Shown: piece after piece, positions 13,135 through 30,430 of the stretch | Layout: each line of letters opens with the position of its first letter | How positions within the stretch are numbered: the first letter of the stretch is position 1 | DNA from: an uncultured bacterium | Lineage (GTDB): Bacteria > Verrucomicrobiota > Verrucomicrobiia > Verrucomicrobiales > Akkermansiaceae | Direction: 5' to 3' | DNA: 64,000 bases | NCBI GenBank assembly: GCA_945947905.1 | Contig: CAMEZO010000002.1 | Location: 1,871 to 65,870, forward strand | The notes under the pieces: model-generated | Database searches by the model: none | Told to the model about the DNA's origin: nothing | Seen by the model: the letters and a program-made list of their open reading frames with translations, nothing else | Position numbers and translations under genes: made by a program

Positions 13135-13353
13135 ATGCACACCATGCCGGCCGTCTTCACCTCCCCTTGGCAGTGGACCATCCTCCTGCTCGCCTGCCTT
13201 CTTGTCTTCGGCGCCAAACGCCTCCCGGAGATCGCGCGCGCCCTCGGCAGAAGCCTCGCCGAATTCCGTAAGGCTCGCCGCGACTTCGAGGATGAACTCA
13301 CCCGCACCGAGCACCGTGAGGACGATCGGGAGGAAAAGGACGACCGCAGGTGA
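13135..13353 (+). CDS. tatA: Twin-arginine translocase TatA/TatE subunit
   Basis: WQWTILLLACLLVFGAKRLPEIARALGRSLAEFRKA. Promoter TTGACA-17-CACAAT lies 6 nt before the ATG. Confidence 0.93.
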   Translation: MHTMPAVFTSPWQWTILLLACLLVFGAKRLPEIARALGRSLAEFRKARRDFEDELTRTEHREDDREEKDDRR

Positions 13354-13390
13354 GCATGCTCGCCTGCGCCCTATCGGTGACGATGCCGTA

Positions 13391-13821
13391 GAACTACCGA
13401 GCGGATGATGAGAACTACCGGACCCCTCTCCCGGACCGAATAAGAACTACGGAACAGGCCGTTTCAACTACCGAACGGGCTCCGGGAACTACCTTTTCTA
13501 CTACAGCACTTGTTGACAACGGGAGGAGAAAAACCATATGGTACAAACGCTTTGTTGTTTTGAGTTTTCTAACATCCATGCTTTAGTCTCCGATTTTTCC
13601 CCCATGCACACACGCGCGCGTAGCGTATTTTTCAGCCGCAGTGCATGGTCCCCGGTCAATGCCTATATCCCGAAAACCCTTGATATTATTATGAATTCTC
13701 CTTATTATAATAAAATTTTTATATAAAAAAGGTAGTTGAAAAGGGGTGGGTAGTAGTTCAAAAAGGGGTTCCGGTAGTTGTAACGGGGCTTTCAGTAGTT
13801 CAAACGGATCTTTCGGTAGCC
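13391..13821. repeat. Inverted sets of 21-bp-phased iteron-like repeats flanking an AT-rich core (replication-origin-like)
   Basis: AACTAC at 13392, 13413, 13445, 13466, 13487. Its reverse complement GTAGTT at 13732, 13753, 13774, 13795, plus GTAGCC at 13816. AT-rich tract ~13681-13730. Confidence 0.8.
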
Positions 13822-13957
13822 CCTTTTCTTTCGCCGCTGCCAAGACCCGACCGCCCCGGGAAATGAGCTGCACCGGACCTCCCGCCGCCGCGGCTGTCGT
13901 CAGCGAGTAGGGATGAACGCGGAATTTCGGGAATCATCGGAAAGGGCTGATTGTCGC

Positions 13958-15373
13958 CTATTCTCGCCGGATGACGGCGCGGCCGGAGTCGGTGTAGTTG
14001 ACGGACTTGACCTTCTCGAGGTAGCGGAAGATCGCATCGGAGGCGCGGAGGCCGAGGCGGCGGGCGGAGGAGACGGGTAGGCCGGGGGTGACGGCGGCGG
14101 CGTAGTCGTTGGTGACGACGCGGTAGGTTTTGTTCGGGTCGAGGGGCTTACCGTTTTCGGCCCGGATATCGGTGACGGTGAGGTTGAAGGAGGAGTCCAG
14201 GACCCCGGTGTAGGTGATACCCGCTACGCAGGGGGAGCCGTGCCCGTCCGCCTTGGTGAGGGACGTGAGCATCTGCACGAGCTCGGCGGGGCGGAGGCGC
14301 AGCTCGATCAGCTCGTTACCGTAGACATCGAGGCGGTGCACATCTGCTACCGTGATGGGCCCCGCGGGCAGCATGCCGATGCGGATGTTCCCGTAATTCT
14401 GCACGACGATATCAGCCCCGGTCGCATAGCGGATAGCATCCGTCTCCAAGCAGCCGAGCGCCTCCCTGTGAACCATGGGCAGCTCGTTGTGACCGACCAC
14501 GCGCTGCAAAGCCGGTGTCGCGGTGTATTCTGCCACCCGTGCGCAGAGATCGGCATCCGGCGGGTAAAGATCCATGCTGACGGTTTCCGCCTGCTTCGAG
14601 ACCACCTTACCATCTTTCACCTCCAGGGTTATACGCGTGGCATGGGAGGCCCGACCGGCCGTTTGGGTGATGAGCACACCGCCCTCCGAGGTGATGCGGT
14701 TGACAGGCGTGTAACTCCCGCCGCCGACGATGACATCCGCCTCCGGCAAGAGCGCCGCGAGCTTGCGGTCATTGTCAAAACCCAGGTGGGTGAGCAGCAC
14801 GAGCACATCGCACTCGCTGCGGAGCCGGCGGTACTCCGCGGCCACCTGCAACGCGTGCTGAAACACGAGCCCCGGCAGGGAAGCCGAGCGCCCGGCCGGG
14901 AAGCCGCCGCTGCCCACGCAGGTGAGACCCAGCACGCCGATGCGCACCCCCTTGCGCGTGAAAATACGGTAGGGATGCAGGGTCAGCACGCGCTTGGTAT
15001 CCGGTTGCACATTGGCACAGATGAAGGGGAAATGCGCCGCGCGCACATTATCCCGCAGCGCCGGCAGCCCGCCGTCGGCATCGTGCAATCCCAGCCCGCA
15101 GGCATCGAAGCCCAGGCGGTTCATCAGGTCAATGACAGGGCGCCCCGGATGCTTGACGGCATCGCATGCCGGGTGCCCGGTTCGGGTGTCGCCGGCGCAC
15201 AGCAACAACGCGCCGGGGTCGGCGGCCTTGGTTTCCTGCACAAAACTCTGCAAGCGCGGCATCATGTCCAGTGCGGCGTGAATATCATTTGTCCCGATAA
15301 TAGTGATGGTTTCCGCAGGGCAGAAACCCGTGAAGAAGAGCCAAATGGCGGCAAATGCGGCGCGTGCGTTCAT
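13958..15373 (-). CDS. 5'-nucleotidase/UshA-like metallophosphoesterase with degenerate metal site
   Basis: TNDIH, AGD, FICANV, LLTHLG and a C-terminal 5'-nucleotidase domain (YRVVTNDY). GNHE is replaced by GLHD and GGHSH by GGGSY. Confidence 0.8.
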   Translation of the reverse strand: MNARAAFAAIWLFFTGFCPAETITIIGTNDIHAALDMMPRLQSFVQETKAADPGALLLCAGDTRTGHPACDAVKHPGRPVIDLMNRLGFDACGLGLHDADGGLPALRDNVRAAHFPFICANVQPDTKRVLTLHPYRIFTRKGVRIGVLGLTCVGSGGFPAGRSASLPGLVFQHALQVAAEYRRLRSECDVLVLLTHLGFDNDRKLAALLPEADVIVGGGSYTPVNRITSEGGVLITQTAGRASHATRITLEVKDGKVVSKQAETVSMDLYPPDADLCARVAEYTATPALQRVVGHNELPMVHREALGCLETDAIRYATGADIVVQNYGNIRIGMLPAGPITVADVHRLDVYGNELIELRLRPAELVQMLTSLTKADGHGSPCVAGITYTGVLDSSFNLTVTDIRAENGKPLDPNKTYRVVTNDYAAAVTPGLPVSSARRLGLRASDAIFRYLEKVKSVNYTDSGRAVIRRE

Positions 15374-15533
15374 CGTGCGGTCAGTTTAGCATGATTCGGT
15401 AGACGAGCGCAAGCAAAAACGCCCGCCGAGGGAGCAAAAAAACCGAAACTGCGGTCAAAAAAAGCCCCCCTCTGCGTGTCCGCGGTTTTGCAACCTATTG
15501 ACCCGGATACGGGAAAATCGGATGATGAAAGGC

Positions 15534-16763
15534 ATGGCAATACTGATAAACGAATGGGGAACGACGCCCATGCCGCCCGCCGCGCCGCATCTGATGCTGC
15601 AAGGCGTAGCCGGTGTTGACGCCGCCGCCCGCACGCTGGGCAAGGGCCTGACGGATGCCGCCGACGCCGCGGCAGAGTTGGCCGACGAACAGGAACAGGT
15701 AACAGGCACGGGAGAGCTCGCCGGCTTCGCCGCCCGCCTGCACCGCATAGGGCAGGAAACGCGCGAGGAGATGGCCGCCCGCCGCATACGCGACTGGGAT
15801 GCCGCCTGGCAGCAGACCAGCGAGCCCCTGCTGCTGGAGGCCGTCAACGAGCTGCCCGAAAACGTCCGCGACGCCGGCCGCGAGCTGGCCCGCGCCTACA
15901 ATGCGCAGGAGGCCGTGCGCGCCCGCCGGGAATACGAGCTGGGCCGCATCGAAACCGCGCGCATGAGCTGGCAGAACTGCTTGGACAACGCCGTGCAGAG
16001 CGGCGACAGCACCGCCCTGGACGCCTGGCTGCAGGCCGGCCGCGGTGTGTTTGTGGCAGAGGACAGGGTGGAACCCATGCGCCGCGAGCTGCGCAGCCGC
16101 AGTTGCCTGGCACAGTGGCAGCAGCGCCTGCAGCAGGAGCCCCTGGACGCCCTGACCGCCCTGTCCGGGGACGATGCGCGCCCCGAGTGTGCACGGGATG
16201 TCCGCGCCCTGGAGCAAGCCGTCGCCACCGCGCGCCGCAGCGCCTCCGGCTCCCTGGCCCGCCGCTGGCAGCAAGCCCTGGAGCAAGGCCTGGAACCCGA
16301 TGCCGACAGCGTCGCCCGCGCCCGCGCCGCCGGCCTGGTGCCCGCCGCGCCCGAGACCGCCCCGCAGCCCATGACCCCCCGCGAGAAAAGCGAGTGGCTG
16401 GGCCGCATTGATGAGCGAGACGCCGCCGACGAACAGACCCTGCGCCTGCAGATAGCCCTGGCCCCCCTGCCGGTGCAGGAGCGCAGCAGCCTCTTGCAGC
16501 GCATGGACGCCACCTGCGCCATCCCCGCCGATGACCGCCGCCGCGTGAGCCTCGCCCTCCGCCGCCTGTACCGCCGCGGGGTGCTCGGATGCCCCGGGGA
16601 TGCCGCCGCTCACCGCCGCCTGGGCCGTCTGCAGGAGGAGGCACTGCCCATCCTGCAACAGGGCGGGGCCGCCGCCGCAGAGCGCTGGGTCAGCAGACTG
16701 CCCTCCTACAGCGGGCGCTGGGTATGCTACGGCGATATGCAGCAGAAAGGAGTGCAGCGATGA
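15534..16763 (+). CDS. Phage-derived hypothetical protein (internal virion/ejection-protein-like)
   Basis: Ala-rich helical 409-aa ORF; first gene of a coupled operon ending in a terminase. Function inferred from context only. Confidence 0.55.
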   Translation: MAILINEWGTTPMPPAAPHLMLQGVAGVDAAARTLGKGLTDAADAAAELADEQEQVTGTGELAGFAARLHRIGQETREEMAARRIRDWDAAWQQTSEPLLLEAVNELPENVRDAGRELARAYNAQEAVRARREYELGRIETARMSWQNCLDNAVQSGDSTALDAWLQAGRGVFVAEDRVEPMRRELRSRSCLAQWQQRLQQEPLDALTALSGDDARPECARDVRALEQAVATARRSASGSLARRWQQALEQGLEPDADSVARARAAGLVPAAPETAPQPMTPREKSEWLGRIDERDAADEQTLRLQIALAPLPVQERSSLLQRMDATCAIPADDRRRVSLALRRLYRRGVLGCPGDAAAHRRLGRLQEEALPILQQGGAAAAERWVSRLPSYSGRWVCYGDMQQKGVQR

Positions 16764-19700
16764 CGGAGGAGCAGCCCCTTGCCGAGGCCCCGACGGCGGA
16801 GGAGGATCTCTACAGCCGCCCCCGGTCCCATACCCCCGCCGCCGACCCGCAGGCGGCCGAGGCCGATATGCCCGCCACGACGGAGGAGGAGAAGGAGCGC
16901 TACTGGCAGCGCGTGCTGACCGGTAACCCCGAAACCGTGCCCGCCGATGTCATTCGGCAGGCCTGCGCCGATGACCCCGCCGTCCCGGAGGAAGAGAATA
17001 CCTATGACCTCCTCACCGGCATCAACCGCTCCTGGTATGCCGACCACCACCCCGAAGAGAGCCGGGAGGAGCTGCTCCTGCGCTGGGCGGATGTGCGCCG
17101 CTCCCTGGCCGAGGAGCTGAACGTGGCCAACGACGAGCGCGAGGTCTTCACCGCCCTGGCCGACGAAAAGCCGATGGAGGAGCGCCGCCGTCTGGCCCGC
17201 GAGACCTACGGCCGCGCCTACCTGGCCGCTCTGCACGGCGAGGCCCGTCCCGAGCCGTCCCCCGGGGTCAGCCCCGAGGACCGGGAGCACCTGCAGAACA
17301 TCTGCCGCCGCGCCGAGCAGGATGCCGAGGAAAAGATGGCCCGCGTGCGCCCGCTGGTGGATGTGGTGGCCGACGGTATGGACGCCTTCATCGCCACGGA
17401 GCAGGAGGTGGCCCCCCCGCTGAGCCTGCGCGTCTACGGCGACAAGATGCGCCTGATGGAGGCCTGCTACCGCCTGGCCGAGATGCCGCAGGAGGACCGC
17501 GAGCTGCTGTACTATATGGCAGCGGACAAACTGCGGAAGCGCGTGAAGCCCGACTCCGCCGAGCCGGAGGGCTTCCTCTCCGCCGCCGCGCGCGCCTACA
17601 GACGCGGGTTTACGGACATCGGCACGGGGCTGGCGCAGGGCCTGGGGCACATCGGTGTGGCTACGGGGCGCAGGCTGGGCCATTTCCTGGACCTGCCCTC
17701 GGTGAACGCCGCGGCGGATACGGCGGAGGGCGGACTGCGCGTGTTGGATGAGATACGCGAGGCCGCCCAGCAGGATGTGCTGCCGCTGGACCTAGGCGAG
17801 GGGGCCGGCCTGGCAGAGCAGTACTTTGTGGAGGCCATGGGCAATGTGCCCGCCGCCGCTCTGGCCCTGTGCGGGGGCGTGGGCTTCGGGGTGCTGGGGC
17901 TCAGCGGCATGGGGCAGAGCGTGTCCGAGGCCCGCCGCCGCGCGCCGGAGAACAGCCAGGAGCTGCAACTGGCGGCCGGTGCGGTGGGCGGGTGTGTGCA
18001 GGCCGGTATCTGCGCCCTCATGGGCCGGGTGGGCGGCAAGCTGCTGGAGCAGAACCTCACCGCCTTTGCCCGCGCCCACGGACGGGGCATCGGGGCGTAT
18101 TCCCTGGCGGCCCTGCGCACCTCCGGCGGGGTCGCGGCAGAGGGCGGCAAGATGCTTGCAGCCGTCCGCTTGGGGCAGGCGGCGGAGCAGGGGGCGCAGG
18201 AGCTGGCCGCGCAGGCGGAGCAGCGGGCCTCAAATATCAACTGGCAGGAGTTCGGGGACAACCTCACGGACATCGAGGCCAACATGCGGGAGGCCGCCGT
18301 GAACCTGCCCTTCGTGCTCATGGGGGCCGGCAAGGCCTCGCTGCATCACTTCCGCTGCCGCCGCCAGCTTCTGGACCCGCAGGGCGGCGCCGGGGAATGG
18401 GGGCTGAAGCCGGAGGAGCTCGCCCGCATCGCCGCCGAGCCGGATGCCCTGCGCAGCAGCGAGATGATGCGCGAGGCCATCCGCAGGACCCCGCGTTGGA
18501 ACTCCGCGCAGAAGCTGCTGCCGCTGGCACGCCGCGCGCTCAACCTGCTCAATACGCAGCAATTTCGCCCCGCTTACAGCACGGGCGAGCTCTGCGATTT
18601 CTTGGGGATGCCCGCCTCCTTCGGGGAAGGGGTGAACCCCGCCGCCCCGGCGCCGGCGCGCCGCAGTCTGTCCGCCCGCTTGGCGCAGAATGATGAATGG
18701 ACCGCCCTCGCCCGGCCCGGGGAGGCCCTGCACCTTCCCGCCCAACTGCCGCCGCCGGAGAAGCCCCGTGCGTGCGAGGCTGCCGTGAAGCTGGCCGCGG
18801 AGGACCTGCAGATGCTCGCTTACCGCCGTATCCTGGGCGCCCAGGCGGACGGGGAGCTGGCCGCGGGAGAGGCCGCCGCCGGGAAGTCCGAGCTGATGCG
18901 GCGCGAGCTGCCGGATGCCGTGAGCCGCGCGCTGGTGCGCTGTGCGCAGGGGGAGCTGCCCGCCTATGCCCTGCGGGATCTGGAGGGCGAGCTGCTGGGG
19001 GAGCCTTCCGGCTTGCATCCCACCGCCCGCCGCTACCTGCTCCGGCGCATGGCGGCCTACTCGGACTTTGCGGCCACGGGGGCGGAGCCGCAGATGGCCA
19101 AGCAACTGGCCGTGCTGGGCGCGCGCCGCTGGGCGGAGTCGCTCTACTACCTGCTGCCGCGTTGCCCGGCGTTTCAGGAGCTGCTGGTCAGCGGTCGCTC
19201 GCCCGCGCAGGCTTTCGCGGAGCTCTCGCAGCGTTACCTCGGCAGTGCTGCCTGCGAGGTGCCGCCGCCGGCGGAGTCGAATGCCGCCGTCTTTGCGCGC
19301 TATGCCGCGCTGACCGGTAACAAGGTGGAGAGTGCCACGGGGCCGGACGGCGTGACGCGCCTGCGCGCTCGGCGTCCGGATGGTCGCTACACGCCCTGGC
19401 ACAGCACGCAGGAGCAGGTGATGAACGATGTCGCGGGCCACGCAGCGCTGATGTTCGGCGGTTATATGAGCACCGGGGGCATGGCGAACATGCGGCCCCG
19501 CGTCTTCTCCCGCTTCGATCAGCTGGGGGCGCTGGCGGTGCACGACCTGTACGGGGCGTGGTTCGGCAGCGCCACGGGGTGGGTGCCGGGCTTGCAGATC
19601 GAGCGGCTCCGGCACTCCATGCGCGGTGCCTGGCGCGGGGATGGCATCACGCCCGTCCTGCTGAAGGAGGCGCGCGGACCGCAGCAGTACACGGCGGAGC

Positions 19701-21652
19701 TCTATTCCGTCGTCAATCCCGTCTCGATGCTGCAGGCGCGCCTGGCTGCTTACTGGCGCGGGCAGATAGAGGGCGGCCACACCACCGCGGAGCAGGTCAT
19801 GGACTTCCTCGCGGCGCACGACCGCCTCACCCCGGAGGAGCGCGCGTCCACGGAGGCTATCGCGGCCCTCCGTTTCCGGCGCGAGCCGGGGGGACCGCGC
19901 ATCATGCTCCCGCGCGATTTCCCCGGTATGTACAACGAGGTCGCGGGGCGCATGGCGGAGTATATGACGGAGTACCTGGTGCAGAACCCGGACGCCGTGC
20001 CCCTGCCGGGGTCCGTGCGCCGTTGGCTGGATTACGCTCCCTTCATGCCCCCGGAGAAGCCCGCCGGGGTGACGGCCGATCACAGGAGCCGCGAGGTGGG
20101 GGAGAAGATGGAGCTGCTGGGCGTAGACTCCAACCGCCTGGCGGCCCGGAAGGTGCAGGGCTGGGCAGGGCGCGCGGAGGCTCTGCGCCGCGAGGTATCG
20201 GCGGAGGATGCGGCCTTCTTCCGGCAGCATCTGCAGGGGGCGTTCACGCTGCCGCCGGCGCAGCAGCTGGAGCAGGGCTGGGCTTACCGCTTGGGCGGGG
20301 AGCAGGCTGCCATGGCGACGGGCAGTACCCTGCGGCGCTTGCTGACGGACCCGGGGCGGGAGCTGCCCCGCCTCTCGGCGGAGGATTCGGAGCACCTCCT
20401 CCCCATGGCGGAGTCCGTGGTGCGGGCTTTCCCGACGCTCGCCGCAGAGGGCTCCGCACCGCAGGGGGCCGTGGGGCAGGCGCTGGGCAATCTGGCGGCG
20501 GTGCTGGCCGAGCACCCGGAGCTGCATGAGTACGCGCCGGCGCAGGAGCACTTCCGCGTGCACCGTATGCAGGTGCGGGATCTGCCGCCGGCGCAGGACC
20601 CCGGTACCTTCGCTACCTGGGCTACCCGGCCCGCAGGGATGAAGCCCGGTTATGCGCTGGAGGAGAACATTCCCATGCCGGAGTGGATGCGGCAGGACCC
20701 GCGGGCCATCCCGGCGCTTCATACCATGCACGCCCTGCGGATGATGACGGCGGACGGGCCGGTCTATACGCCCATGGGTATCCTGACGCCGCAGGGCTTT
20801 GTGGGCGGGCGCTACGGGCAGAATCCCGCCCCGCTTCGGGGCTGGCGCTCGCGCCCCGCGCTGGAGAATATCCTGCGCATCCTGGATGAGGCGTACGCCA
20901 CCGGCGGCGGGGAGCCCGTGCCCGTCTGCGGAGTGCGGCTGCGGGGGCTTAACCTCGCGGAGCTGGACCTGCGGCCTCTGCGGGACATCACGGTCTACAG
21001 CAGCCCGGAGACTTCGGGCGGTTGCTACCGCTTGATGCCGGGGAACCCGGAGATGCCGTCGCTGAAGGTCGCGGAGCCTTACCTCGTCAAGAGTTTCGAC
21101 GGTATCCTGTGCCGGGGTATCGGCGGCATCCCGGCCAAGGAGCTGCGCGAGTCGGCCCCGGCGCCGGAGTCGTACGCCGTGCCGCTGCGCGGGTTTGTGC
21201 GCACGCGTTTTCAGCCCTGCTCGGAGTACATGGCCTACGAGAATACCCTGGCGGCTACCACCCGCGCGGTGGATGAGATGCTGGCCCTGGGGGAGCGCTG
21301 TTACTTGGCCCCGCCGGATGCCTACCTGCGCTTCGCCTTGCAGGAGGGCATCTGCCGCCTGTGCGAGGATACGGGCTTCTCGTACTTCCTGGAGGGGCAG
21401 GGGGTGCAGGAGCTCTCGCCCGGGCAGGCGCGCGCCGTGGCCTGGGTGCGTACCATGGTGGCGGCTCTCGGCGACCCGTCGGAGGAGTCGTTCAATGCCT
21501 TCGCGCAGGCTTGCCGCAGCATCAGTGCCGATGAGGCGCTGCGGAAGCAGATGGTGGAGGTGTTCAACTGTGAGCGCGACCCCGCAGACCCGCCGCCTCC
21601 GCGTAAGCGTACCCGTAAGAAGAACCCGGATAACATTAACATGCTCTGGTGA
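16760..21652 (+). CDS. Large (1630 aa) phage-derived protein, ejection/DNA-transfer-protein-like
   Basis: ATG 16760 overlaps the upstream stop (ATGA), RBS GAAAGGAG. Central Gly/Ala-rich hydrophobic helices (AALALCGGVGFGVLGLSGMG). No catalytic motif recognised. Confidence 0.6.
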   Translation: MTEEQPLAEAPTAEEDLYSRPRSHTPAADPQAAEADMPATTEEEKERYWQRVLTGNPETVPADVIRQACADDPAVPEEENTYDLLTGINRSWYADHHPEESREELLLRWADVRRSLAEELNVANDEREVFTALADEKPMEERRRLARETYGRAYLAALHGEARPEPSPGVSPEDREHLQNICRRAEQDAEEKMARVRPLVDVVADGMDAFIATEQEVAPPLSLRVYGDKMRLMEACYRLAEMPQEDRELLYYMAADKLRKRVKPDSAEPEGFLSAAARAYRRGFTDIGTGLAQGLGHIGVATGRRLGHFLDLPSVNAAADTAEGGLRVLDEIREAAQQDVLPLDLGEGAGLAEQYFVEAMGNVPAAALALCGGVGFGVLGLSGMGQSVSEARRRAPENSQELQLAAGAVGGCVQAGICALMGRVGGKLLEQNLTAFARAHGRGIGAYSLAALRTSGGVAAEGGKMLAAVRLGQAAEQGAQELAAQAEQRASNINWQEFGDNLTDIEANMREAAVNLPFVLMGAGKASLHHFRCRRQLLDPQGGAGEWGLKPEELARIAAEPDALRSSEMMREAIRRTPRWNSAQKLLPLARRALNLLNTQQFRPAYSTGELCDFLGMPASFGEGVNPAAPAPARRSLSARLAQNDEWTALARPGEALHLPAQLPPPEKPRACEAAVKLAAEDLQMLAYRRILGAQADGELAAGEAAAGKSELMRRELPDAVSRALVRCAQGELPAYALRDLEGELLGEPSGLHPTARRYLLRRMAAYSDFAATGAEPQMAKQLAVLGARRWAESLYYLLPRCPAFQELLVSGRSPAQAFAELSQRYLGSAACEVPPPAESNAAVFARYAALTGNKVESATGPDGVTRLRARRPDGRYTPWHSTQEQVMNDVAGHAALMFGGYMSTGGMANMRPRVFSRFDQLGALAVHDLYGAWFGSATGWVPGLQIERLRHSMRGAWRGDGITPVLLKEARGPQQYTAELYSVVNPVSMLQARLAAYWRGQIEGGHTTAEQVMDFLAAHDRLTPEERASTEAIAALRFRREPGGPRIMLPRDFPGMYNEVAGRMAEYMTEYLVQNPDAVPLPGSVRRWLDYAPFMPPEKPAGVTADHRSREVGEKMELLGVDSNRLAARKVQGWAGRAEALRREVSAEDAAFFRQHLQGAFTLPPAQQLEQGWAYRLGGEQAAMATGSTLRRLLTDPGRELPRLSAEDSEHLLPMAESVVRAFPTLAAEGSAPQGAVGQALGNLAAVLAEHPELHEYAPAQEHFRVHRMQVRDLPPAQDPGTFATWATRPAGMKPGYALEENIPMPEWMRQDPRAIPALHTMHALRMMTADGPVYTPMGILTPQGFVGGRYGQNPAPLRGWRSRPALENILRILDEAYATGGGEPVPVCGVRLRGLNLAELDLRPLRDITVYSSPETSGGCYRLMPGNPEMPSLKVAEPYLVKSFDGILCRGIGGIPAKELRESAPAPESYAVPLRGFVRTRFQPCSEYMAYENTLAATTRAVDEMLALGERCYLAPPDAYLRFALQEGICRLCEDTGFSYFLEGQGVQELSPGQARAVAWVRTMVAALGDPSEESFNAFAQACRSISADEALRKQMVEVFNCERDPADPPPPRKRTRKKNPDNINMLW

Positions 21653-23247
21653 TGGATAAGCGGGCTCCCATTCGCCGCAGGCTGAACTCGCCCCTGTGGC
21701 GGCTCAATCACCTGTATTGGATCGAGAATAAGCAGGGGCAGGTGCAGCGTTTCACCATGAATGCCGCGCAGCTCCGCCTGCATCGCAACCTCTGGTCTCG
21801 CAATGCCGTGCTCAAGGCGCGTCAGTTGGGTATCTCCACCTATGTGGCGCTCTTCATGTTGGATTCCTGCCTCTTCACCCCGGGCTTTCACGCCGGTATC
21901 GTGGATAAAACGCTGCCGGATGCCGAGTTGAAGCTGGAGAAGATCCGCTTTGCCTGGGAGCACCTGGACTACCTGCCGCCGGGGGCGGGGGCGCAGGAGC
22001 GTTCGCTGGCCTACCTGGGCAGGGTGGTGAAGCGGGGCACCGGCCTGCTGCGCAGCGGGGCGGAGGTGCTGCCGGCGGATGCCCGCGAGCGTCTGGCGTT
22101 CTCCAACGGCAGCGATGTGCGCCTGGGTACCACCATGCGCGGCGGTACGCTCAACCTGCTGCATGTCTCGGAGCTGGCCCACACCTCCGTGCACGCCCCG
22201 TGGCGTGCGCGCGAGGTGCTGACGGGCGCGGTGAACAGCGTGCCGCTCTCCGGGCGCGTGATCCTGGAGAGTACGCACGAGGGCGGGCGCTACGGGGTGA
22301 ACTATGAGCTGATGCTGCAGGCGATGGAGAACCGCGCCCACCGGGTGCTCTCGCCGCTGGATTTCCGCTTCTTTTTCTTCGGGTGGTTTGATAACCCGGA
22401 GTACGCTCTGCCCGGGGCGCTGCCGGCGGGGGATGCGCTGCATGCGTACTTCGCCGGGCTGGCGGAGCAGGGGATCTGTCTGTCGCAGGCGCAGCAGGTG
22501 TGGTATGCCCGTATGGCGCGCACTATGGGGGGCGCTATGCGGCAGGAGTACCCTTCCTCGCCGGAGGAGGCGTTCAGCGTCGGTAATGAGGGTGCCATCT
22601 ACGCCGCGCAGCTCATGCGCCTGCGGGAGTCCGGGCGCATCGGGGCGGATTTCGCGGTGCATCCCTTCGCGCCGCTCTACACGGCCTGGGACCTGGGGAT
22701 GAGCGACCACACGGCTATCTGGCTCGTGCAGGCCATCGGGGGGCAGGTCTACTGGCTGCACCACTACGCGGCCAATCAGCTGCCCGTGGAGCACTATGCC
22801 GCCAAGATCCGCGAGTGGGAGCAGTCCTACGGCCGCTGCGAGGCGCACTTCCTGCCGCATGATGCCGCCCACCGCGACCCGCACGGGCAGTCCTATGTGG
22901 AGTGCCTGGCGCGGCTCGGGATCACAGCGGTGCGGGTGGTGCCGCGTACCACGGATGTGTGGCGCGGTATCAATGACCTGCGCCGCCTGCTGGTGAACAG
23001 CTGGTTCCACCGGAACACGTTGGAGGAGCGCTCCGACCCGGCCGGCCGCCGCGTGCCTTCCGGGCTCGCCTGCCTGGAGAATTACCGCACCGCGCCCCCC
23101 TCGCCCTCCGGTTCCTTCCGCGAGGCTCCCCTGCACAATGAGTTCTCCCACAGCGCCGACGCCGCCCGCACCTTCGCCGAGGCCGCCTCCCACGGCCTCC
23201 TCACCCCTCTCTCCTCCCGCCGCCCCTCCCTCGCTCGCATGCAGTGA
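21652..23247 (+). CDS. terL: Phage terminase large subunit
   Basis: RLNHLYWI N-terminus, Walker A LKARQLGIST, Walker B LHVSE, LESTHEG coupling motif, QEYP, nuclease AWDLGMSDHTAIW and HSADAAR. TGATG overlap with the upstream gene. Confidence 0.92.
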   Translation: MDKRAPIRRRLNSPLWRLNHLYWIENKQGQVQRFTMNAAQLRLHRNLWSRNAVLKARQLGISTYVALFMLDSCLFTPGFHAGIVDKTLPDAELKLEKIRFAWEHLDYLPPGAGAQERSLAYLGRVVKRGTGLLRSGAEVLPADARERLAFSNGSDVRLGTTMRGGTLNLLHVSELAHTSVHAPWRAREVLTGAVNSVPLSGRVILESTHEGGRYGVNYELMLQAMENRAHRVLSPLDFRFFFFGWFDNPEYALPGALPAGDALHAYFAGLAEQGICLSQAQQVWYARMARTMGGAMRQEYPSSPEEAFSVGNEGAIYAAQLMRLRESGRIGADFAVHPFAPLYTAWDLGMSDHTAIWLVQAIGGQVYWLHHYAANQLPVEHYAAKIREWEQSYGRCEAHFLPHDAAHRDPHGQSYVECLARLGITAVRVVPRTTDVWRGINDLRRLLVNSWFHRNTLEERSDPAGRRVPSGLACLENYRTAPPSPSGSFREAPLHNEFSHSADAARTFAEAASHGLLTPLSSRRPSLARMQ

Positions 23248-23286
23248 GGGCAGGGGCGCGAGGGCTTAACAGAGAGCGAAAAAAAA

Positions 23287-23669
23287 GCTGACCGCGGAAG
23301 GGAAGGTGCATCAGCAGAGCCGCGCGAGGGCGTATGAGAGACTTCACACCGCCGTGCTGATAGGAACCGAGAAGTTGCTGACCGCGAAAAAACAGACTTC
23401 ACGCCGCTGGGGTGGGAGAGAGCGAGAAGATGCTGACCGCGGAATAAAAGGAATTCTTGGAGAGTCGGTGGCCTGCATAGCTCGGTTCAGACTTCACGCC
23501 GCCGGGGTGGTAGGTCCCTTAGTTATTTTAATAAATAAATGATGCTGCCTACTATGACTTTGCTCTGAAGTCTTGCTGAAGTCCCGAAGGCCAATCAGTC
23601 TCCGAAAATTCCTTTTATTCCGCGGTCCTTTTCCACTCGCCCACGACAGATACAGCGGGATGAAGTCTC
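23287..23669. repeat. Composite palindromic repeat, copy 1 (left arm around the GxxExxY gene)
   Basis: Motif A CAGACTTCAYRCCGC at 23338, 23393, 23488 and inverted at 23655. Motif B GACCGCGGAATAAAAGGAATT at 23432 and inverted at ~23600-23627. Inverted core at 23508-23600. Confidence 0.9.
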
Positions 23670-23695
23670 CCATTCCCTCTGCCCGGCTCCGCTTA

Positions 23696-24127
23696 TTAAG
23701 GATGGGGGATTTGCTCACCGGCCGATTTTGCTGCACCTTTGGTACATACAACACGACGCCATTCGCAACCCCCTTGTTTGCCGAAATTGAACAGAAGCCC
23801 GACCTGTAAGTGACTTGCTTTAAGGTAGTTGTAAACCTGGTTCTTGTGGGCGTCAACGAGTTCAGAGACAGCCTTCAATTCAACAATGATCTTGTCGAAG
23901 CACACGAAATCCGCCTTGAATAAAGGCTCCAGAATGCTATCCTTGTAATGGATTTTCAACAAGGCCTCCCGCTGAAAGGGGATTCCCCTTGCCTTGAATT
24001 CACTGGCAAGCGCATGCTGGTACACAACCTCCGAAAAGCCATGTCCCAAGACTTCATATACCTCAAGAGCAGCCCCTATAATGGCACCGGTCATGCTTGA
24101 ATCAATGATTTTTGAGTACTTCGACAT
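23696..24127 (-). CDS. GxxExxY family protein (PD-(D/E)XK nuclease superfamily)
   Basis: GHGFSEVVYQHAL signature, ADFVCFDKIIVELKA (D...ExK), QVYNYLKA and GLLFNFG. Visibly AT-richer than the host genes. Confidence 0.92.
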   Translation of the reverse strand: MSKYSKIIDSSMTGAIIGAALEVYEVLGHGFSEVVYQHALASEFKARGIPFQREALLKIHYKDSILEPLFKADFVCFDKIIVELKAVSELVDAHKNQVYNYLKASHLQVGLLFNFGKQGGCEWRRVVCTKGAAKSAGEQIPHP

Positions 24128-24242
24128 GCCTCTATCTCATACTACAGTTCATTCCTCAAGTCAAGACCAAACCACCTTATTTCCCCTTTTTTTATCACTT
24201 ACCTACCATGCAGCCCCCTCTCCGCCCGTCTCCTCCAATACG

Positions 24243-24761
24243 GCGGCATGAAGTCTGTACTGAGCTATGCAGGCCACCGACTCTCCAAAAATTCCCTTTA
24301 TTCCGCGGTCATCCTCTTCTCGCTCTCTATTGTCACAGCGGCATGAAGTCTGCACCAAGCTATGCACGGTTCCGATTTTTTCCAAGCTCCCCCTTCATCC
24401 CGCTGTAGCTGTCGTGGGCGAGTGGAAAAGGACCGCGGAATGAAAGGAATTCTCGGAAACTGTCTATCATGCTATTCACAGTCAAGACGTCGGAGCATAT
24501 TCATTGTAGGTAGCTTCGGATTTTAATTAAAACAACTCAGGGACCTACCATCCCTGCGGCATGAAGTCTGCACCGAGCTATGCAGGCCATCGACTCTCCA
24601 AAAATTCCTTTTATTCCGCGGTCATCCTCTTCTCGCTCTCTATTGCCACAGCGGCATGAAGTCTGCAAGGAGCCAAGCATGTCAATCAGTTTCCGTATCC
24701 TTCCTGAAATTCTGCGTTCTGAAAACTTCAGCTCTCTCCCACCCCGGCGGTATGCAGTCTG
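24243..24761. repeat. Composite palindromic repeat, copy 2, plus an inner 95-bp tandem
   Basis: Inverted motif A at 24243, 24338, 24556, 24651, 24747 (95-96-bp steps within each run). Core at 24460-24550. 24393-24665 is the reverse complement of 23393-23665. Confidence 0.9.
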
Positions 24762-24789
24762 TTTTTTTCGGACGTTTTCAGAAATACGC

Positions 24790-24818: not shown

Positions 24819-24848
24819 TTCCACGGCCCATTGTGGCCTGATGTCGTC

Positions 24849-27800
24849 ATGAAACTCCGTCTTCCTCTCCTCCTCCGCTTGGCTTTGTTGTCTACTGCTG
24901 CCGCCTACACGCTCGGCAGCGGCTGCCTCTTCGCTGATGATGCGCCCGCCGATGCCGCGCAGGACGACCCCATCGCCGAGGCCGTGGACGAGGAAGAAAG
25001 CGACAGCCCCGCCATCGGCTTCGAGGGCTATACCGAGTCTCAGTTGGTGGATATTCAGTCATCCGACTCCGCAGGCTCCGTCATCCGGCAGATGCTGGAG
25101 AACTCCACCACGGGCGCGGTTGCCAACGTGGGAACCACCTCCTCCACCTCCAACGGCGCCACCACCGCCGCCGAATCCCCCGCGCTCACCCTCACGGCCC
25201 CCGCCGAGCCCGTGACCGACACCTCCCTGACCACCTCCACCCTTTCCGATTCCGCCGGCGAGGGGGCTGTCGCCCCCTTCTTCAGCGCTGAAGAAGCCGC
25301 CGCTCTCGTTGTCGCAAGCCCTGCAACGAGTACACCCTCCCTTAAAAACACCTCAACAGCCACCCTCTCCTCGTCCGACGCATCGGACGAAACTACCTCT
25401 TCCGTGGCTGCTAACGGTGCCTCCTCCTCCATCGCCTCCGTAGGCTCTGCCGGCGGCGCCGGCGCCTCTTCCGGTGGTGGTTCTGCTTCCTACTCCATCA
25501 CCTCCTCGGCCCCCGATAGCTCTTCCTCCCTCGTCATCACCACCCCCACCGACGACACCTCCTCCGACCCCATCGCCGACGACACCTCCTCCGACCCCAT
25601 CGCCGAGGATGTCCTCGAAGACTCCACCACCGAGGACACCACCACCACTTCCACCCTCTCGGATTCTTCTGCCTCCACCCTTGCCGGCACATCCTCTACC
25701 TCCGCCACCATCCGCACCCTCCCGGCGTTGAAACTGCTGGGCGCGACGGAGACATCGACTCAGGGAACAGTTAAGGTTGATGGCGTTGATAGACCATCCG
25801 GTGAAAAATCCGATAAAGGTGTGCAGTTTTTGTATGGCAAGATGGGTGGTAGCGGAGATGATGTCAATATCATTTATTTACATAATGACCCGTCAACCTA
25901 TCCCAGCGTTGTCGAAGTAGACGCTAATTCGTTTTATATTTGCCCGAATAACAAAAGTCCCAAGTTCAGTATAGGGGCTCTCAAAACTGATACCCCTGCG
26001 GCTACTGTTAAAATCCAAAATAACGAGTGGAGCGGGAATGAAAATTCTACGCTGACCCTCACTCTGGATACTCTTTCCGTCAACGGCTCGGCTTCATTGG
26101 AAGTCAACCAGACTCGCACCGGCGCAATTACCGTTTCCATAGGTAAGGTGGCGAATAGCTCAACGGAGTCCACAACGGGTCCTCTTCTCACCAGCGTCAA
26201 AAACTCCGGAACGCTTAATCTGGGTACAAACGCCTCCGGAGAAGGGGAGTCAAAAGTTACAGCGTCGTCCATTTCCATTGGCTCTCTGACGAACAGCGGC
26301 ACGATGACTCTGAATGGAGAGACGACCATTACGGAGAAGCTGACAAACACCGGTACGTTGACGGTAAATAGTGGCGCGACTCTTGTCGGAAAGATTGATT
26401 CAACAGGGACACTGAAGTTGGATGGTGTATGGGATCTTCGCGGTCAAGATAATATGATTAAAGATGGTACCGACCGTCTCGAGACACAGCTTAGAAAGAT
26501 CAATGCGGGTTCCGGAACTGTTAAGGTTAAGGCTGACGGTGCGTATGTTTTCATGCAAGATTATGCCTTGGGTGGACTGTCGCTGGAATTTAGCGGTACC
26601 AGTACCAGTGTCGCTGAGATTAACGGCTATGGATATAAAGACGGTAGTTCCGAGGTCACTGTTGGTGTCGGTTCCCAAGTTAAGACAGGAGGGAATCTGC
26701 GCATTGAATCCAAAGCTACCCTCCTTGTATCCGGAGGAACTGTAAATTGCGGCGGAACCTTGCAGTTAGGGCACGAAGAGACTGGTACAAATGGCAAAAA
26801 TTACGGTCGTTTGACTGTTGCGGAGGGTGGTCACTTGACTGCGGCGAGTATAGGGCAAACGGGAAATCAATATTCCGTGGTCAAGGATGGGAATTTGTTT
26901 ACCATGACAGGAGGAAAATTGACTATTACCTCTGCGATAAATGATGCAATATCGAAGGTTTATACTGTGATTTCCGGGGGTACACTCGATACGTCGCAGG
27001 CCGCTTGGGGAATTAAAGGTAATGGTGACGGGAGTGTGAGTGTGGGCGGTGTAACTGTTTCCGATGCCTATACGACAGAGGAGGGGACGACAGCCTACAG
27101 CCGCAACGCCCTGACATTGACCGGAGCGAACATTACCGGCAACATCAGCTTGGCAGGGAAGGCTGACTTGAACCTGAAGAACGTGACGGTCACCGGGGAG
27201 GATGTCACAGTGGGGGGCGATAACCGAACGATCAGTGTGGCCGAGGGCAGTCTGACTGTTGAGAAGTCTGTTACGACAAAGGGGCTTTTGCAGGTTCAGG
27301 AGAATGCAACCCTGAAACTCAACAACGCGGATACGACGGTGACCACCATCACGAACCGGGACGGTTCTACGGAATCTGCCGCGATTACCGGTGGTAGTGT
27401 GTCGATGACATATGATACTGCTGATAATAAGGGCGTCATCTCCGGGGCGACAATCAGCAATGCTGCAATTGATGTGTCACAGCGGAGTGTGTTGGCGCTT
27501 TCGAACTCTACGCTCGATAGCGGAGTAATTACCCTGAACAGCAATGCTGTGCTCGAGTTGGCCGCTTCAGTCAACGGGACTCTTACCGGTAGTATCGTGT
27601 CTGCTGAAAATGCTACGGAAACGACGCTTCGGGTGAGTGGCTCCGCCGTTGAGACCTTGATCGGGACGGTGAATGTGGCTGCAACGGAGGTTCAATCCGG
27701 TACATTAACCCTGAGCGGCGATAGCATTGCGCACAGCCTGGGGGCTGTGACGGTGGGGAGCAACGCTGCACTGAACGTTGAAGGAAGTTCGCAGACCCTG

Positions 27801-29900
27801 AACTTGAGTGCTGTGGTGCAGAACCAAGGAACCCTGAGCCTCGGTGGTGTTTCTACATTGACATTCACGGTGTCGGATGTGTTCGATAGCTTCTCGTACA
27901 CAGATACAGTAACCGGAGCCGGGGCGAAGAATGGGTTTATCGACCGGTATTGGCTCATTCGGAACAGCGGAAGCGGGACGATGAGTGGACTTGCAGTTTC
28001 GGCGGTGACCGTCAACAGTACTTCCAAGAATGCTATATCTGAAACAACCGGTCTGTATGCCGCAGTGGAGGCAGCAGATCTTGGGTTGACGGATGGTACC
28101 GACCTGAACAACATCTACGTTGTCAACGAGGGCAATGTGGTCTACGATGCAGACTCGAATAGTTCCGGAGCTTCCGCCGTGAAGCAGCTTTGGCTGACGG
28201 GTGGCACGCTGGCATTGGATCAGTCCGATATTAAGTCCGGGGTGGGTGTGCATGTGAAGCAAGACAGCACGGTGAATATCGGAGCTGATCGCACCTTGAC
28301 GGATTCACAGGTGGCCTCTGTTGCGAGCGGGAAAACGCTGACTCTGACGGGTTCGGGAACCTATAGTTTGGCAGTTGATCAAATAGGCGAGACCGCATTG
28401 TTGACATCGGGGGTCGCATTGGCCACGGGTGAAAGCGGTTTCACGGGGACGGTATTGTTGAACAAGGGCACGACCTTGAACGGAACGGATTTGAGCGCGT
28501 TGACCAACGGCAGTTACTCCTCCGTGACAATGAACGGCGTGTCCGGGACGCTGAAATCCGGTGACATCAGCACGAATTTGGTGTTGAAGAACCATGTTGA
28601 TACCGGAAGTGCCGATATTGTAGCTTTGTCGCTCGAAGGAGGTGGAGCGAATATCAATTTCAACGGGGCTATCAGCGGTACCGGAGAGATGAAGATCGCT
28701 CCGAGCGATGCCGCCGCCGAGAATACTCTTATTTTCTCCGGTGATGTAAGCGGATGGACGGGTAAGTTGGAGGTATTCAAAGGTATAGCGAACGTGACAT
28801 TTACCGGAGAGGCCAAGGAGATCAATGCCTACGTTGCTGATACGTTTAGTGATTCTGTGCTGAATATGGTAGTCGATGCCTCGGAGGGCAGGAGTTTCAC
28901 TCAGGGCATTTCGGCGGATACCTTGCGGTTGACAAATGGAACGGAAGGCAAGGTTGTCGATGTGTCAGGTGGTTCCTATATTGTTTCTGCGAAGACAGAC
29001 CTGACAGAGAGTAATGTCATTCTGCAAGTCAAAGGAACAGGGTCTGAGGATAGTAATCTGTATAGCTCTCTTACAGAGTTGGCCTCTGATGGTTCCTCCG
29101 GCATTAATATCTCCGATAGTGAAAAGACTTTGACGAAGATTCGGACTAATACACAAGATGCTTCAAGCTCCGGAAACGCAACTCTTTCATCCTGCACGTT
29201 TACTTATAATAATTCCACCGCAAAGATCTCGGGATCTACCATCGACCGGGCGGTCATTGATGTGGTGAACGGCAGCACCTTGGAATTGAGCGGTGTGGTG
29301 CTCACGAATTCCTGTTGGGTGCGTGATGATGACGCGAGTACCCCGGCGCCTACCGGGAAATTGGTTTTAGACGGGGTGGAGCTGCAGATGGCTAAGGGGA
29401 CCGCGAGCACGGAGGATGGCTCGGGGGTGGCCCTGACGCTCACCGGCGGCACGACGGCAGCTAAGAATGCTGATGGTTCGGCGAAGACGCTTACCGGAAA
29501 GGTCTATGTGATGGATCTCACCCAGATCTCCGATTTTGCCACTATCTCGGGCAGCGGGAATGGGCTGACCCTGAACTTCGATACATACGGGAATGGCTTT
29601 GCAGAGCTTTATGAGACCCTGAAGGGCTATGATTATGTCGCTGTGAAGTTCAGCGATGATGTGCTCTCGGTAGACTTCGAGACCCTGAAAGTGACCTCAA
29701 AGATTACAAACGGCCAGAATGCCGAGGCAACATCGCAGGGCTACTATTACAATAACAACGGCGCCAGCGGTGTGGTGGTTTACTTCGATGCTATCGCTCT
29801 GCCGGAGCCGACGACGAGCACTCTGGGCCTGCTGGCCTTGGCGGCCCTCTGCGCACGGCGCCGTCGCTCCCGCACCCGCGCGCACGCCGAGCATGCATAG
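24849..29900 (+). CDS. Large PEP-CTERM surface protein (Ser/Thr-rich linker plus beta-helix-like passenger), 1683 aa
   Basis: Leader MKLRLPLLLRLALLS, S/T/D-rich stalk, Gly/Thr/Ser beta-rich repeats, C-terminal LPEPTTSTLGLLALAALCARRRR. Confidence 0.88.
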   Translation: MKLRLPLLLRLALLSTAAAYTLGSGCLFADDAPADAAQDDPIAEAVDEEESDSPAIGFEGYTESQLVDIQSSDSAGSVIRQMLENSTTGAVANVGTTSSTSNGATTAAESPALTLTAPAEPVTDTSLTTSTLSDSAGEGAVAPFFSAEEAAALVVASPATSTPSLKNTSTATLSSSDASDETTSSVAANGASSSIASVGSAGGAGASSGGGSASYSITSSAPDSSSSLVITTPTDDTSSDPIADDTSSDPIAEDVLEDSTTEDTTTTSTLSDSSASTLAGTSSTSATIRTLPALKLLGATETSTQGTVKVDGVDRPSGEKSDKGVQFLYGKMGGSGDDVNIIYLHNDPSTYPSVVEVDANSFYICPNNKSPKFSIGALKTDTPAATVKIQNNEWSGNENSTLTLTLDTLSVNGSASLEVNQTRTGAITVSIGKVANSSTESTTGPLLTSVKNSGTLNLGTNASGEGESKVTASSISIGSLTNSGTMTLNGETTITEKLTNTGTLTVNSGATLVGKIDSTGTLKLDGVWDLRGQDNMIKDGTDRLETQLRKINAGSGTVKVKADGAYVFMQDYALGGLSLEFSGTSTSVAEINGYGYKDGSSEVTVGVGSQVKTGGNLRIESKATLLVSGGTVNCGGTLQLGHEETGTNGKNYGRLTVAEGGHLTAASIGQTGNQYSVVKDGNLFTMTGGKLTITSAINDAISKVYTVISGGTLDTSQAAWGIKGNGDGSVSVGGVTVSDAYTTEEGTTAYSRNALTLTGANITGNISLAGKADLNLKNVTVTGEDVTVGGDNRTISVAEGSLTVEKSVTTKGLLQVQENATLKLNNADTTVTTITNRDGSTESAAITGGSVSMTYDTADNKGVISGATISNAAIDVSQRSVLALSNSTLDSGVITLNSNAVLELAASVNGTLTGSIVSAENATETTLRVSGSAVETLIGTVNVAATEVQSGTLTLSGDSIAHSLGAVTVGSNAALNVEGSSQTLNLSAVVQNQGTLSLGGVSTLTFTVSDVFDSFSYTDTVTGAGAKNGFIDRYWLIRNSGSGTMSGLAVSAVTVNSTSKNAISETTGLYAAVEAADLGLTDGTDLNNIYVVNEGNVVYDADSNSSGASAVKQLWLTGGTLALDQSDIKSGVGVHVKQDSTVNIGADRTLTDSQVASVASGKTLTLTGSGTYSLAVDQIGETALLTSGVALATGESGFTGTVLLNKGTTLNGTDLSALTNGSYSSVTMNGVSGTLKSGDISTNLVLKNHVDTGSADIVALSLEGGGANINFNGAISGTGEMKIAPSDAAAENTLIFSGDVSGWTGKLEVFKGIANVTFTGEAKEINAYVADTFSDSVLNMVVDASEGRSFTQGISADTLRLTNGTEGKVVDVSGGSYIVSAKTDLTESNVILQVKGTGSEDSNLYSSLTELASDGSSGINISDSEKTLTKIRTNTQDASSSGNATLSSCTFTYNNSTAKISGSTIDRAVIDVVNGSTLELSGVVLTNSCWVRDDDASTPAPTGKLVLDGVELQMAKGTASTEDGSGVALTLTGGTTAAKNADGSAKTLTGKVYVMDLTQISDFATISGSGNGLTLNFDTYGNGFAELYETLKGYDYVAVKFSDDVLSVDFETLKVTSKITNGQNAEATSQGYYYNNNGASGVVVYFDAIALPEPTTSTLGLLALAALCARRRRSRTRAHAEHA
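25549..25602 (+). repeat. 27-bp in-frame tandem duplication in the stalk
   Basis: CCGACGACACCTCCTCCGACCCCATCG x2 (DDTSSDPIA x2). Confidence 0.9.
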
Positions 29901-30375: not shown

Positions 30376-30430
30376 CCACCCCTTTGCTCCTTCTGCGTTC
30401 GGTTTTTGAGGGGGCGGTGGAGATTTTCTC

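Follow-up and report, generated by a model that had tools for sequence, protein, structure and literature searches.

A putative dispersed mosaic intergenic element with helically phased repeat arrays downstream of tatA in an uncultured Akkermansiaceae bacterium

The stretch analysed here (the window; 64,000 nucleotides of one contig of an uncultured Akkermansiaceae bacterium) carries, between tatA and a 5'-nucleotidase-family gene that both converge on it, two opposed arrays of short repeats around an AT-rich core. DNA of this family is dispersed, is found at gene 3' ends in few copies per genome, and occupies different places in close relatives. We tentatively read positions 13345 to ~13925 as one copy of a lineage-restricted, dispersed, non-coding mosaic intergenic element, whose arrays are predicted phased binding sites for a protein supplied in trans. 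A first-pass annotation of the same gap, rightly given as about 600 bp (it measures 604 bp, 13354-13957), had proposed an orphan replication origin of the phage or phage-inducible chromosomal island (PICI) type, close to a terminase operon. We think it unlikely that the locus is a single phage-type origin with ties to the terminase-like genes nearby; the element is neither the chromosome origin nor functionally tied to the TerL-like cluster.

A dispersed family at gene 3' ends

The clean copy-number evidence comes from two metagenomes, X31 and X32, each dominated by one close relative. The tatA gene of this relative (97% identical to the window over 13250-13346) lies on a 25.5-kb contig (depth 32.7 and 54.5) and is followed by element-free sequence. 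In X31, array plus tail forms the end of three long contigs of equal depth (10.5 kb at 34.3, 5.7 kb at 34.0 and 16.3 kb at 33.7), whose flanks all differ, and the core block is found on contigs of 3.6, 0.49 and 11.2 kb (depth 29.9, 46.9 and 31.6) with differing upstream sequence. The close relative, lacking the element after tatA, carries at least three array/tail ends and at least three cores at single-copy depth at other places, each with a different flank, and is thus not a unique locus. One copy of the family has only part of the core, and a separate 902-nt contig from the same analysis holds a solo left-arm-like segment with AACTACC-type units.

An identical TatA is encoded by ten contigs, and the element follows tatA in every one that reaches far enough. 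The right flanks of these strains are of three kinds, namely the nucleotidase gene, repeats resembling repetitive extragenic palindromes (REP-like) with a lipase gene (L131), and a 140-aa gene with an AAA ATPase (L139), so that the nearness of the element to the TerL-like cluster is strain-specific. A further contig with a 99% identical nucleotidase (L004) matches the window only up to 13918 and continues into another REP-like copy; the right boundary of the element sits in a recombination-prone repeat.

A second lineage was found by scanning the core 20-mer across one genome per GTDB species, which returned a single relevant metagenome-assembled genome (MAG), SFDX01, with two contigs, plus four chance matches. 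The SFDX01 core shares 140 bp at 82-83% identity with the window, including the invariant 22-23-nt blocks CCTATATCCCGAAAACCCTTGAT and GAATTCTCCTTATTATAATAAAA, and the purine-pyrimidine tract is also present. The SFDX01-type 21-bp unit consists of GGTATGTCAGAGGAG plus six variable bases and is repeated 6 or 8 times before the conserved tail. These copies are flanked by the 3' end of glgP on one contig and by that of phoU on the other. In relatives with a 90% identical GlgP, glgP is followed by ftsK and there is no element; a full-length SFDX01-type copy was not found via the glgP neighbour, the closest recorded proteins being ~90% identical and their loci element-free. The core 22-mer is absent from JGI metagenomes and IMG/VR.

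The five known right-flank contexts (nucleotidase, lipase, the 140-aa/AAA-ATPase pair, glgP and phoU) are all chromosomal, four being housekeeping and one possibly defence-related. The right-hand neighbour is on the opposite strand, that is, convergent, in 5/5 contexts, and no rep, primase or helicase gene adjoins any of the five.

The left boundary is placed by two observations. Relatives with a 93-94% identical TatA have no element after tatA, and their homology to the window stops at 13346-13349, inside the last codon; in samples with the window's own species the left arm also occurs under a second kind of left flank, and these copies match the window from 13345 on. Depth over the element is 3-10x that of its flanks, which are level (contig depth 1-2 kb on either side is 5.8 vs 5.3 in X1, among uninduced gut metagenomes), and depth is raised only on the element because several variants pile up there. 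Over ~13458-13530, the block around promoter-like site P1, it is 2-4x that of the flanks in X5 and X9, and contigs have loose ends at 13542 in X5, X6, X9 and X12. Depth ratios of the left-arm variants are near 1 in X1, X3, X4 and X26 and range from 0.5 to 1.8 in X5, X6 and X9, an unevenness which implies that left-arm copies are polymorphic or come partly from sister strains. No strand-changing joints indicative of an inverton were seen in contigs from 18 DNA or unlabelled and 5 RNA-type runs compared with the element or its SFDX01-type counterpart, although contigs can miss rare forms.

From left to right, the modules of the element begin with a hairpin and the inverted array; next come a promoter-like block, a purine-pyrimidine hairpin with its T-run and the invariant AT-rich promoter-like core, and the variable 21-bp array, the tail and a REP-like unit make up the rest. 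As in mosaic repeats of the BIME, REPIN and BOX type, they vary in combination and number (3.5-8 array units) and lie at gene 3' ends. It is the several copies, the variable location, the position at gene 3' ends and the REP-like surroundings that led us to file the DNA as a dispersed mosaic intergenic element. It also has traits of a miniature inverted-repeat transposable element (MITE), being ~580 bp long, with no conserved open reading frame (ORF), several copies and presence or absence after tatA; a classical MITE was rejected on account of the missing terminal inverted repeats, target duplication and clean empty site.

Phased arrays around a conserved core

The first-pass annotation described the arrays correctly. 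On the left, AACTAC starts at 13392, 13413, 13445, 13466 and 13487 (spacings of 21, 32, 21 and 21 bp); on the right, the inverted GTAGTT starts at 13732, 13753, 13774 and 13795, in exact 21-bp steps, and is followed by a degenerate fifth unit, GGTAGCC, at 13815. The window holds 25 GTAGTT matches vs 8.4 +/- 3.1 expected, and 9/25 fall in these 410 bp, all of them on the minus strand in the left array and on the plus strand in the right one. At a period of 10.5 bp the resultant length is 0.99 and 1.00 for the two arrays (Monte-Carlo P = 2e-5 and < 1e-5), so that each lies on one face of the helix. The conserved core of the repeat unit is 9 bp (C-GGTAGTT-S), and the innermost cores of the two arrays are 245 bp apart. 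Right-array units are alike over ~15 bp. The 12-bp spacers of the left array are mutually unrelated, and the retention of its cores amid such spacers argues for selection on motif and phase, not for recent duplication.

Comparison among strains points the same way. The left array has a constant five units in six strains, some of its cores being mutated (most strains have AGAGCTACC as the outermost core, and L132 has GGAACTGCC as the innermost). The length of the right array is 3.5 units in L132, L133 and L140, 4.5 in the window and 5.5 in L131 and L139. Phasing, as expected of the claimed iterons, is kept in every relative examined, and array length shifts by whole 21-bp units. The unit sequence varies between lineages, with GGTAGTT in one array type and GGTATGTC in the other, while the AT-rich core is fixed. 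The arrays look selected, since motif and phase are kept as spacers, unit number and unit sequence vary, and a phase preserved through such changes is the signature of a cooperative protein-binding platform. A motif that differs by lineage beside a core that stays fixed is what selfish cis sites in co-evolution with a protein of their own typically show (iterons, centromere repeats, transposon ends), and host regulons typically do not. No consensus site for IHF is present in the element.

Pattern searches with the arrays gave nothing related. The loose pattern of three GTAGTT in 21-bp steps has more than 120 matches in IMG/VR and a stricter form has 30; the latter were rejected, all being low-GC and looking like coding 7-codon repeats. 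In five viral IMG/VR contigs of ~29% GC (L028, L167, L173, L178 and L184) the unit GGTAGTTCAAAAAATGAAC occurs three or four times, with three of the copies at 21-bp steps. These contigs, found only via the shared hexamer, seem to encode GSSKNEP repeats and have no relation to the element. The SFDX01-type array pattern is not found in IMG/VR.

Between the arrays lies the AT-rich tract noted by the first-pass annotation. The segment at 13681-13730 (90% A+T) exceeds every other 50-bp stretch of the 64 kb in AT content and has the lowest stability (-48 kcal/mol vs a window mean of -77.5 +/- 6.2); it is off-centre and abuts the right array. Four sigma-70-like promoter matches were found in the scanned 1.2-kb region vs 0.3 expected, and the two lineages, that of the window and the SFDX01 type, have identical core blocks, -35 and -10 hexamers included, though their arrays differ. 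The stretch at 13603-13622 (CATGCACACACGCGCGCGTA) is the sole alternating purine-pyrimidine run of >=16 bp in the window. Its length is polymorphic among strains, with a 19-bp deletion in the window version; together with the T5 it forms a terminator-like hairpin in L129 (-19.2 kcal/mol, z = -4.65) and L131, and the window version of this hairpin is unstable (z = +1.6). At the left end, the RNA fold of 13340-13400 has -24.5 kcal/mol (z = -3.3). The likeness of the right end to the REP-like copies at 24.2-24.8 kb has weak BLAST support (E = 0.04).

The element is non-coding. ORFs of 54 aa on either strand are unconserved, the minus-strand one losing its start codon and gaining a stop in L131, and the (MSEEALG)n frame of the SFDX01-type array has no counterpart in the window element. 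As RNA, the arrays are unstructured (z = -1.5 and +2.5), and no conserved secondary structure was detected (alifold -10.6 kcal/mol over 181 columns).

Table 1. Features of the element and its neighbouring genes (window coordinates).
Feature	Position	Strand	Description
tatA	13135-13353	+	PF02416, 3.8e-19
Left end hairpin	13345-13368	+	10-bp stem, CGCAGGTGAG-CATG-CTCGCCTGCG; overlaps the tatA stop codon
Left array	13390-13507	-	five units, core GGTAGTTC; then degenerate CTACTAC at 13499
Promoter-like site P1	13513-13542	+	TTGACA-18-TATGGT; just inside the left array, in a block common to many variants
Central segment	13543-13600		two allelic forms among strains
Alternating purine-pyrimidine tract and T5	13603-13632	+	(CA/CG)n
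Conserved core	13658-13730	+	block CCTATATCCCGAAAACCCTTGAT (13662-13684), P2 and the 90% A+T tract
Promoter-like site P2	13680-13708	+	TTGATA-17-TATTAT, within the AT tract
Right array	13731-13821	+	four 21-bp units (GGTAGTTGAAAAGGGG type) and a partial fifth
Tail	13822-13874	+	CCCTTTTCTTTCGCCGCTGCCAAGA..., follows the array; conserved in the window and SFDX01-type lineages
Partial copy of the ~95-bp REP-like family	13875-13925	+	point where right flanks of strains diverge
5'-nucleotidase-family gene	13958-15373	-	PF02872, 2.3e-22
Three-gene cluster ('terminase operon')	15498-23247		421-aa ORF, 1687-aa ORF and 532-aa TerL-like protein

Proposed role and rival explanations

We propose that each 9-bp core, recurring every two helical turns on one face, would be the site of a sequence-specific DNA-binding protein encoded elsewhere, and that cooperative binding to the two opposed arrays would enclose the stretch that melts most readily in this region. 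The resulting complex may serve as the cis substrate for spreading or maintaining the family by transposition, recombination or local replication. The conserved, outward-directed P2, a predicted promoter, faces the 3' end of a convergent gene in the five known contexts, and the element may thereby act on its neighbours. A bolder and distinctly improbable version would make it a new kind of non-autonomous element, in which a subfamily-specific 21-bp 'address' array is read by a matching DNA-binding initiator or recombinase encoded elsewhere, perhaps a REP-associated nuclease, and an invariant promoter/melting core is shared, the copies being satellite modules for replication or mobilisation, scattered in a chromosome and switchable in specificity.

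Several points weigh against a dispersed element with protein-binding arrays. No full-length second copy was read, copies appearing only as contig ends, depths and 30-nt loose ends, and equal depth in a metagenome is strong evidence for, not proof of, residence in the same genome. The first 99 nt, and no more, are common to the two SFDX01 contigs, as at a branch of a de Bruijn graph (assumed k 99), and taken alone these contigs could be strain variants. Terminal inverted repeats above shuffled controls were not found between the region upstream of the core and the tail, and the arrays are internal to the element, 45 bp from its left and ~100 bp from its right boundary. Neither a target-site duplication nor a clean empty site is present. 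What element-free relatives carry after tatA occurs nowhere in the whole window, so that no empty/filled pair exists and a simple insertion does not account for the difference. Recombination between REP-like units could by itself account for the right-flank changes, most strains have mutations in some left-array cores, and no candidate binding protein, transposase or Rep was identified.

The features of the core could instead belong to a family of small non-coding RNAs (sRNAs), in which P2 would drive a transcript built of the 21-nt repeats, which might serve as a sponge that titrates an RNA-binding protein, and P1 a ~90-nt RNA ending at the purine-pyrimidine hairpin and T5. The two most conserved blocks are precisely those that hold the promoter-like sites, whose hexamers are shared by both lineages; the core-array-tail module is multi-copy between gene ends, like sRNA paralogues; and the lack of structure in the arrays and the terminator-like hairpin of L129 and L131 are in line with such transcripts. 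Metatranscriptome-derived contigs cover the element at depth 2-6, with a neighbouring gene at 0 in one sample. These metatranscriptome or cDNA contigs, which carry no strand information and may include some DNA carry-over, cover the left array, the centre, the core and the first array units at a depth similar to or below that of tatA and glgP; they run across P2 and its upstream region, however, with no discrete start. Nor is the missing conserved secondary structure, the change of repeat motif between lineages (unexpected for a conserved RNA-binding protein) or the missing conserved terminator behind the SFDX01-type array what an sRNA family would predict. The inverted left array is left unexplained, Rfam gives no family match at gathering or permissive thresholds, and we regard this explanation as a serious rival, though an unlikely one.

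Quite unlikely, in our view, is the nearest descendant of the first-pass annotation, an iteron-type theta origin in the style of plasmids, phages or PICIs with its initiator encoded elsewhere, the copies forming a family of orphan origins or relics of integrated replicons. Two opposed, helically phased repeat sets do flank the least stable DNA of the window, and a spacing of 21 bp is typical of plasmid iterons. The iteron claim stands as far as the kept phasing, the whole-unit changes in length and the lineage-specific unit go, all as in iterons; against an origin speak the several copies (at least three in one chromosome) and the missing initiator gene: rep, primase and helicase genes are lacking at the five contexts and, with integrase, in the window, as the first-pass annotation had itself noted for rep, primase and integrase, and ORF scans bear this out. 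A cis site served in trans, as that annotation had suggested, could still hold, with no cognate gene nearby. In the origins of Staphylococcus aureus pathogenicity islands (SaPIs), short iterons number six to twelve and flank an AT-rich region, with at least two per side and in opposite directions (PMC9371898), and the element, with 5 + 4.5 cores strand-separated around the AT tract, agrees with this; SaPI and PICI origins, however, sit immediately downstream of rep inside the island (PMC9371898), and this together with the chromosomal contexts speaks against the SaPI/PICI type. Also against an origin are the absence of DnaA boxes (none in the element at 0-1 mismatches, as first described), an AT tract kept base for base and with a promoter match, beyond simple AT-richness, and the level flank depth in uninduced gut metagenomes. 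BLAST against plasmids and phages (PLSDB, INPHARED, IMG/VR) found no similar DNA, and none of their entries has the same iteron arrays.

A fixed operator or activator array, through which a host transcription factor would control local promoters, for example by looping repression, and which would not be mobile, is very improbable. Its geometry is suggestive: relative to P1 the left array spans about -55 to -160, relative to P2 the right array spans about +15 to +105, and LytTR-type and winged-helix regulators use 9-bp direct repeats at 21-bp intervals. Host regulons, however, keep their motif between sister species, and here the motif changes; the locus is missing in close relatives and present elsewhere in them; and there is no regulated gene downstream, both neighbours converging on the element.

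Hardly credible is a pac- or cos-like packaging site for the TerL-like machine, or a chromosomal origin or terminus. The element lies near a TerL-like gene in the window strain, and the pac site of phage P1 has hexamer clusters on either side of its cleavage region. Gene orientation in the window diverges around 13-15 kb, and more distant Akkermansia (TatA 61-63% identical) have tatA and dnaA in convergent orientation, only 25-53 bp apart (L141 4001-5660; L145 4001-5703). Those loci, with TGTTCCACA-type DnaA boxes upstream of dnaA, have no similarity to the element. The nearness to TerL is strain-specific, however, and the element multi-copy. The link to the terminase operon and the analogy with run-off replication for a gene transfer agent do not hold either, since the element stands beside the lipase gene or the 140-aa/AAA-ATPase pair in other strains and the cluster is conserved elsewhere in an 85% relative. 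The chromosomal origin oriC, which the first-pass annotation had listed as an alternative, was rejected, as GC skew stays positive from the left side (+0.126 at 12-13 kb) to the right (+0.075 at 14-15 kb) without a switch, the window has no dnaA, the element is multi-copy and lacks DnaA boxes, and the 93-94% relatives do not have the locus after tatA. The tatA-dnaA neighbourhood is lost in the window's lineage.

Should the preferred reading of a dispersed, protein-bound element hold, it concerns relatives of Akkermansia, which are intensively studied gut symbionts. The element breaks assemblies and marks differences in gene order between strains, and its predicted outward promoter, strong and strictly conserved, faces the ends of neighbouring genes, so that it probably affects genome plasticity and local expression. 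Arrays that change their sequence at a fixed helical phase, around a fixed core, offer a natural experiment in the co-evolution of a protein with its DNA site. Were the arrays shown to recruit a protein of replication or recombination, core plus array could become a genetic tool for a tool-poor group. The locus is also a cautionary case: a textbook 'origin' architecture is insufficient to call an origin, and it was strain comparison and copy counting that changed the reading.

Genomic surroundings and comparison with known systems

The closest relatives of the window proteins are from Akkermansia and Akkermansiaceae MAGs, and the DNA occurs in pig-gut and faecal metagenomes. The gene scan covered all GC3-favoured ORFs of ~100 aa or more, together with the long ORFs of low-GC islands. 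The matches are ordinary chromosomal genes (dihydroorotate dehydrogenase, FAA-family hydrolase, SulP, cytidylate kinase, recF, trp genes, RNase III), and no rep, primase, helicase, integrase, transposase or dnaA gene is among the scanned ORFs of the 64-kb window.

Only the start of the three-gene cluster lies 1.7 kb from the element; the TerL-like gene is its last (21649-23247) and its sole terminase-like member (phrog_2 match 2.6e-20; also phrog_26724 and phrog_2472). The 1687-aa ORF has ~72% GC and no family match, the three genes have no match in Pfam, PADLOC or NCBIfam, and no portal or capsid genes were seen. In the 85% relative (L001) the first two cluster genes also adjoin the nucleotidase gene. 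In L139 (7272-8417) the right neighbours of the element are the 140-aa gene and an AAA_15/AAA_21 ATPase, which, to judge from the domains, could be a defence-type gene pair.

Copies of the ~95-bp REP-like family (CAGACTTCAyrCCGCyG...GCTGACCGCGGAATAAAAGGAATTTTCGGAGA) are found at 23280-23670, 24229-24770 and 29890-30380, in addition to the partial copy at the right end of the element. They occur in tandem and as inverted pairs, the latter around short AT-rich centres in which GGTAG/CCTACC motifs are found; it is within the repeats that contigs of other strains break off and that the flanks of strains part. A 183-nt inverted repeat of REP-like units (23393-23575 and 24483-24665, 85% complementary) brackets a gene of the PD-(D/E)XK_3 nuclease family (23696-24127, minus strand; PF13366, 4e-39), an arrangement which resembles an insertion sequence or the gene of a REP-associated tyrosine transposase (RAYT). 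A second giant ORF, of 1689 aa and with no family match, occupies 24831-29900 in a low-GC island (49-60% GC) with REP-like clusters on both sides.

The DNA after tatA is variable even in relatives without the element. Two of these (L155 2434-2780; L151 1228-1609) have a strong promoter-like site followed by non-coding DNA with repeated GATTTAG/AATTTAG motifs, and a third (L150 1737-2124) has a palindrome, TGGATAACAATTTATCCA (containing TTATCCACA), followed by an Rhs/YD-like ORF.

A full-text literature search for Akkermansia with iterons or miniature inverted-repeat elements returned nothing relevant. Among characterized systems, the origins of SaPIs and PICIs have two opposed sets of short iterons with an AT-rich region between them, as does the element (PMC9371898). 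The element differs in that it is not behind rep, is not in an island and is multi-copy, its AT tract is off-centre with 245 bp between innermost cores, and its flanks are unamplified. Islands of this kind are integrated and have int and regulatory genes besides the rep or pri-rep ORF, and their origins undergo amplification upon induction and bind a cognate Rep. Iteron plasmid origins and control loci (RK2 oriV, incC and incA of plasmid P1, R6K gamma) have a period of 17-22 bp and an AT-rich region beside the iterons; their initiator gene is on the same replicon, usually adjacent, DnaA boxes are often present, extra iteron clusters occur in the other orientation, and iteron specificity differs between related replicons. 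The element shares with these loci the repeat period, the adjoining AT tract, an opposed cluster and a lineage-specific repeat; unlike them it has no DnaA boxes or rep gene, is chromosomal and repeated, and shows no similarity to PLSDB entries.

The ends of Tn7 and Mu carry several 20-22-bp transposase sites, direct within an end and inverted between ends, one end being contiguous and the other gapped. The 32-bp step of the left array resembles such a gapped end, whereas the arrays are internal and neither TG...CA termini nor a target duplication can be defined. In parC of plasmid R1, 5 + 5 repeats surround a promoter; they are direct and followed by the par genes, whereas the two arrays of the element are inverted with respect to each other.

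The BIME and RIP elements of Escherichia coli and the REPIN/RAYT system are, like the element, non-coding and dispersed at gene 3' ends or between convergent genes, with modules in alternating orientation around a short AT-rich centre, and go together with assembly breaks and flank changes; the element, moreover, ends in, and lies among, ~95-bp REP-like copies. It has no sequence similarity to the proteobacterial families and is far larger (~580 bp), no RAYT gene was seen, the copies seen are few, not hundreds, and it has 21-bp-phased arrays and a complete promoter-like core. BOX of Streptococcus pneumoniae (boxA-boxB(n)-boxC) is likewise a modular intergenic repeat, and its boxB varies in number as the internal tandem unit of the element does; Correia elements of Neisseria carry promoters that act on neighbouring genes. 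In contrast to both, no terminal inverted repeats were found in the element, and its 21-bp units, with a 9-bp core on one helical face, suggest an array of protein sites rather than an RNA stem. Phased site arrays joined to a full promoter core are new among repeats of the BIME, REPIN, BOX and Correia type.

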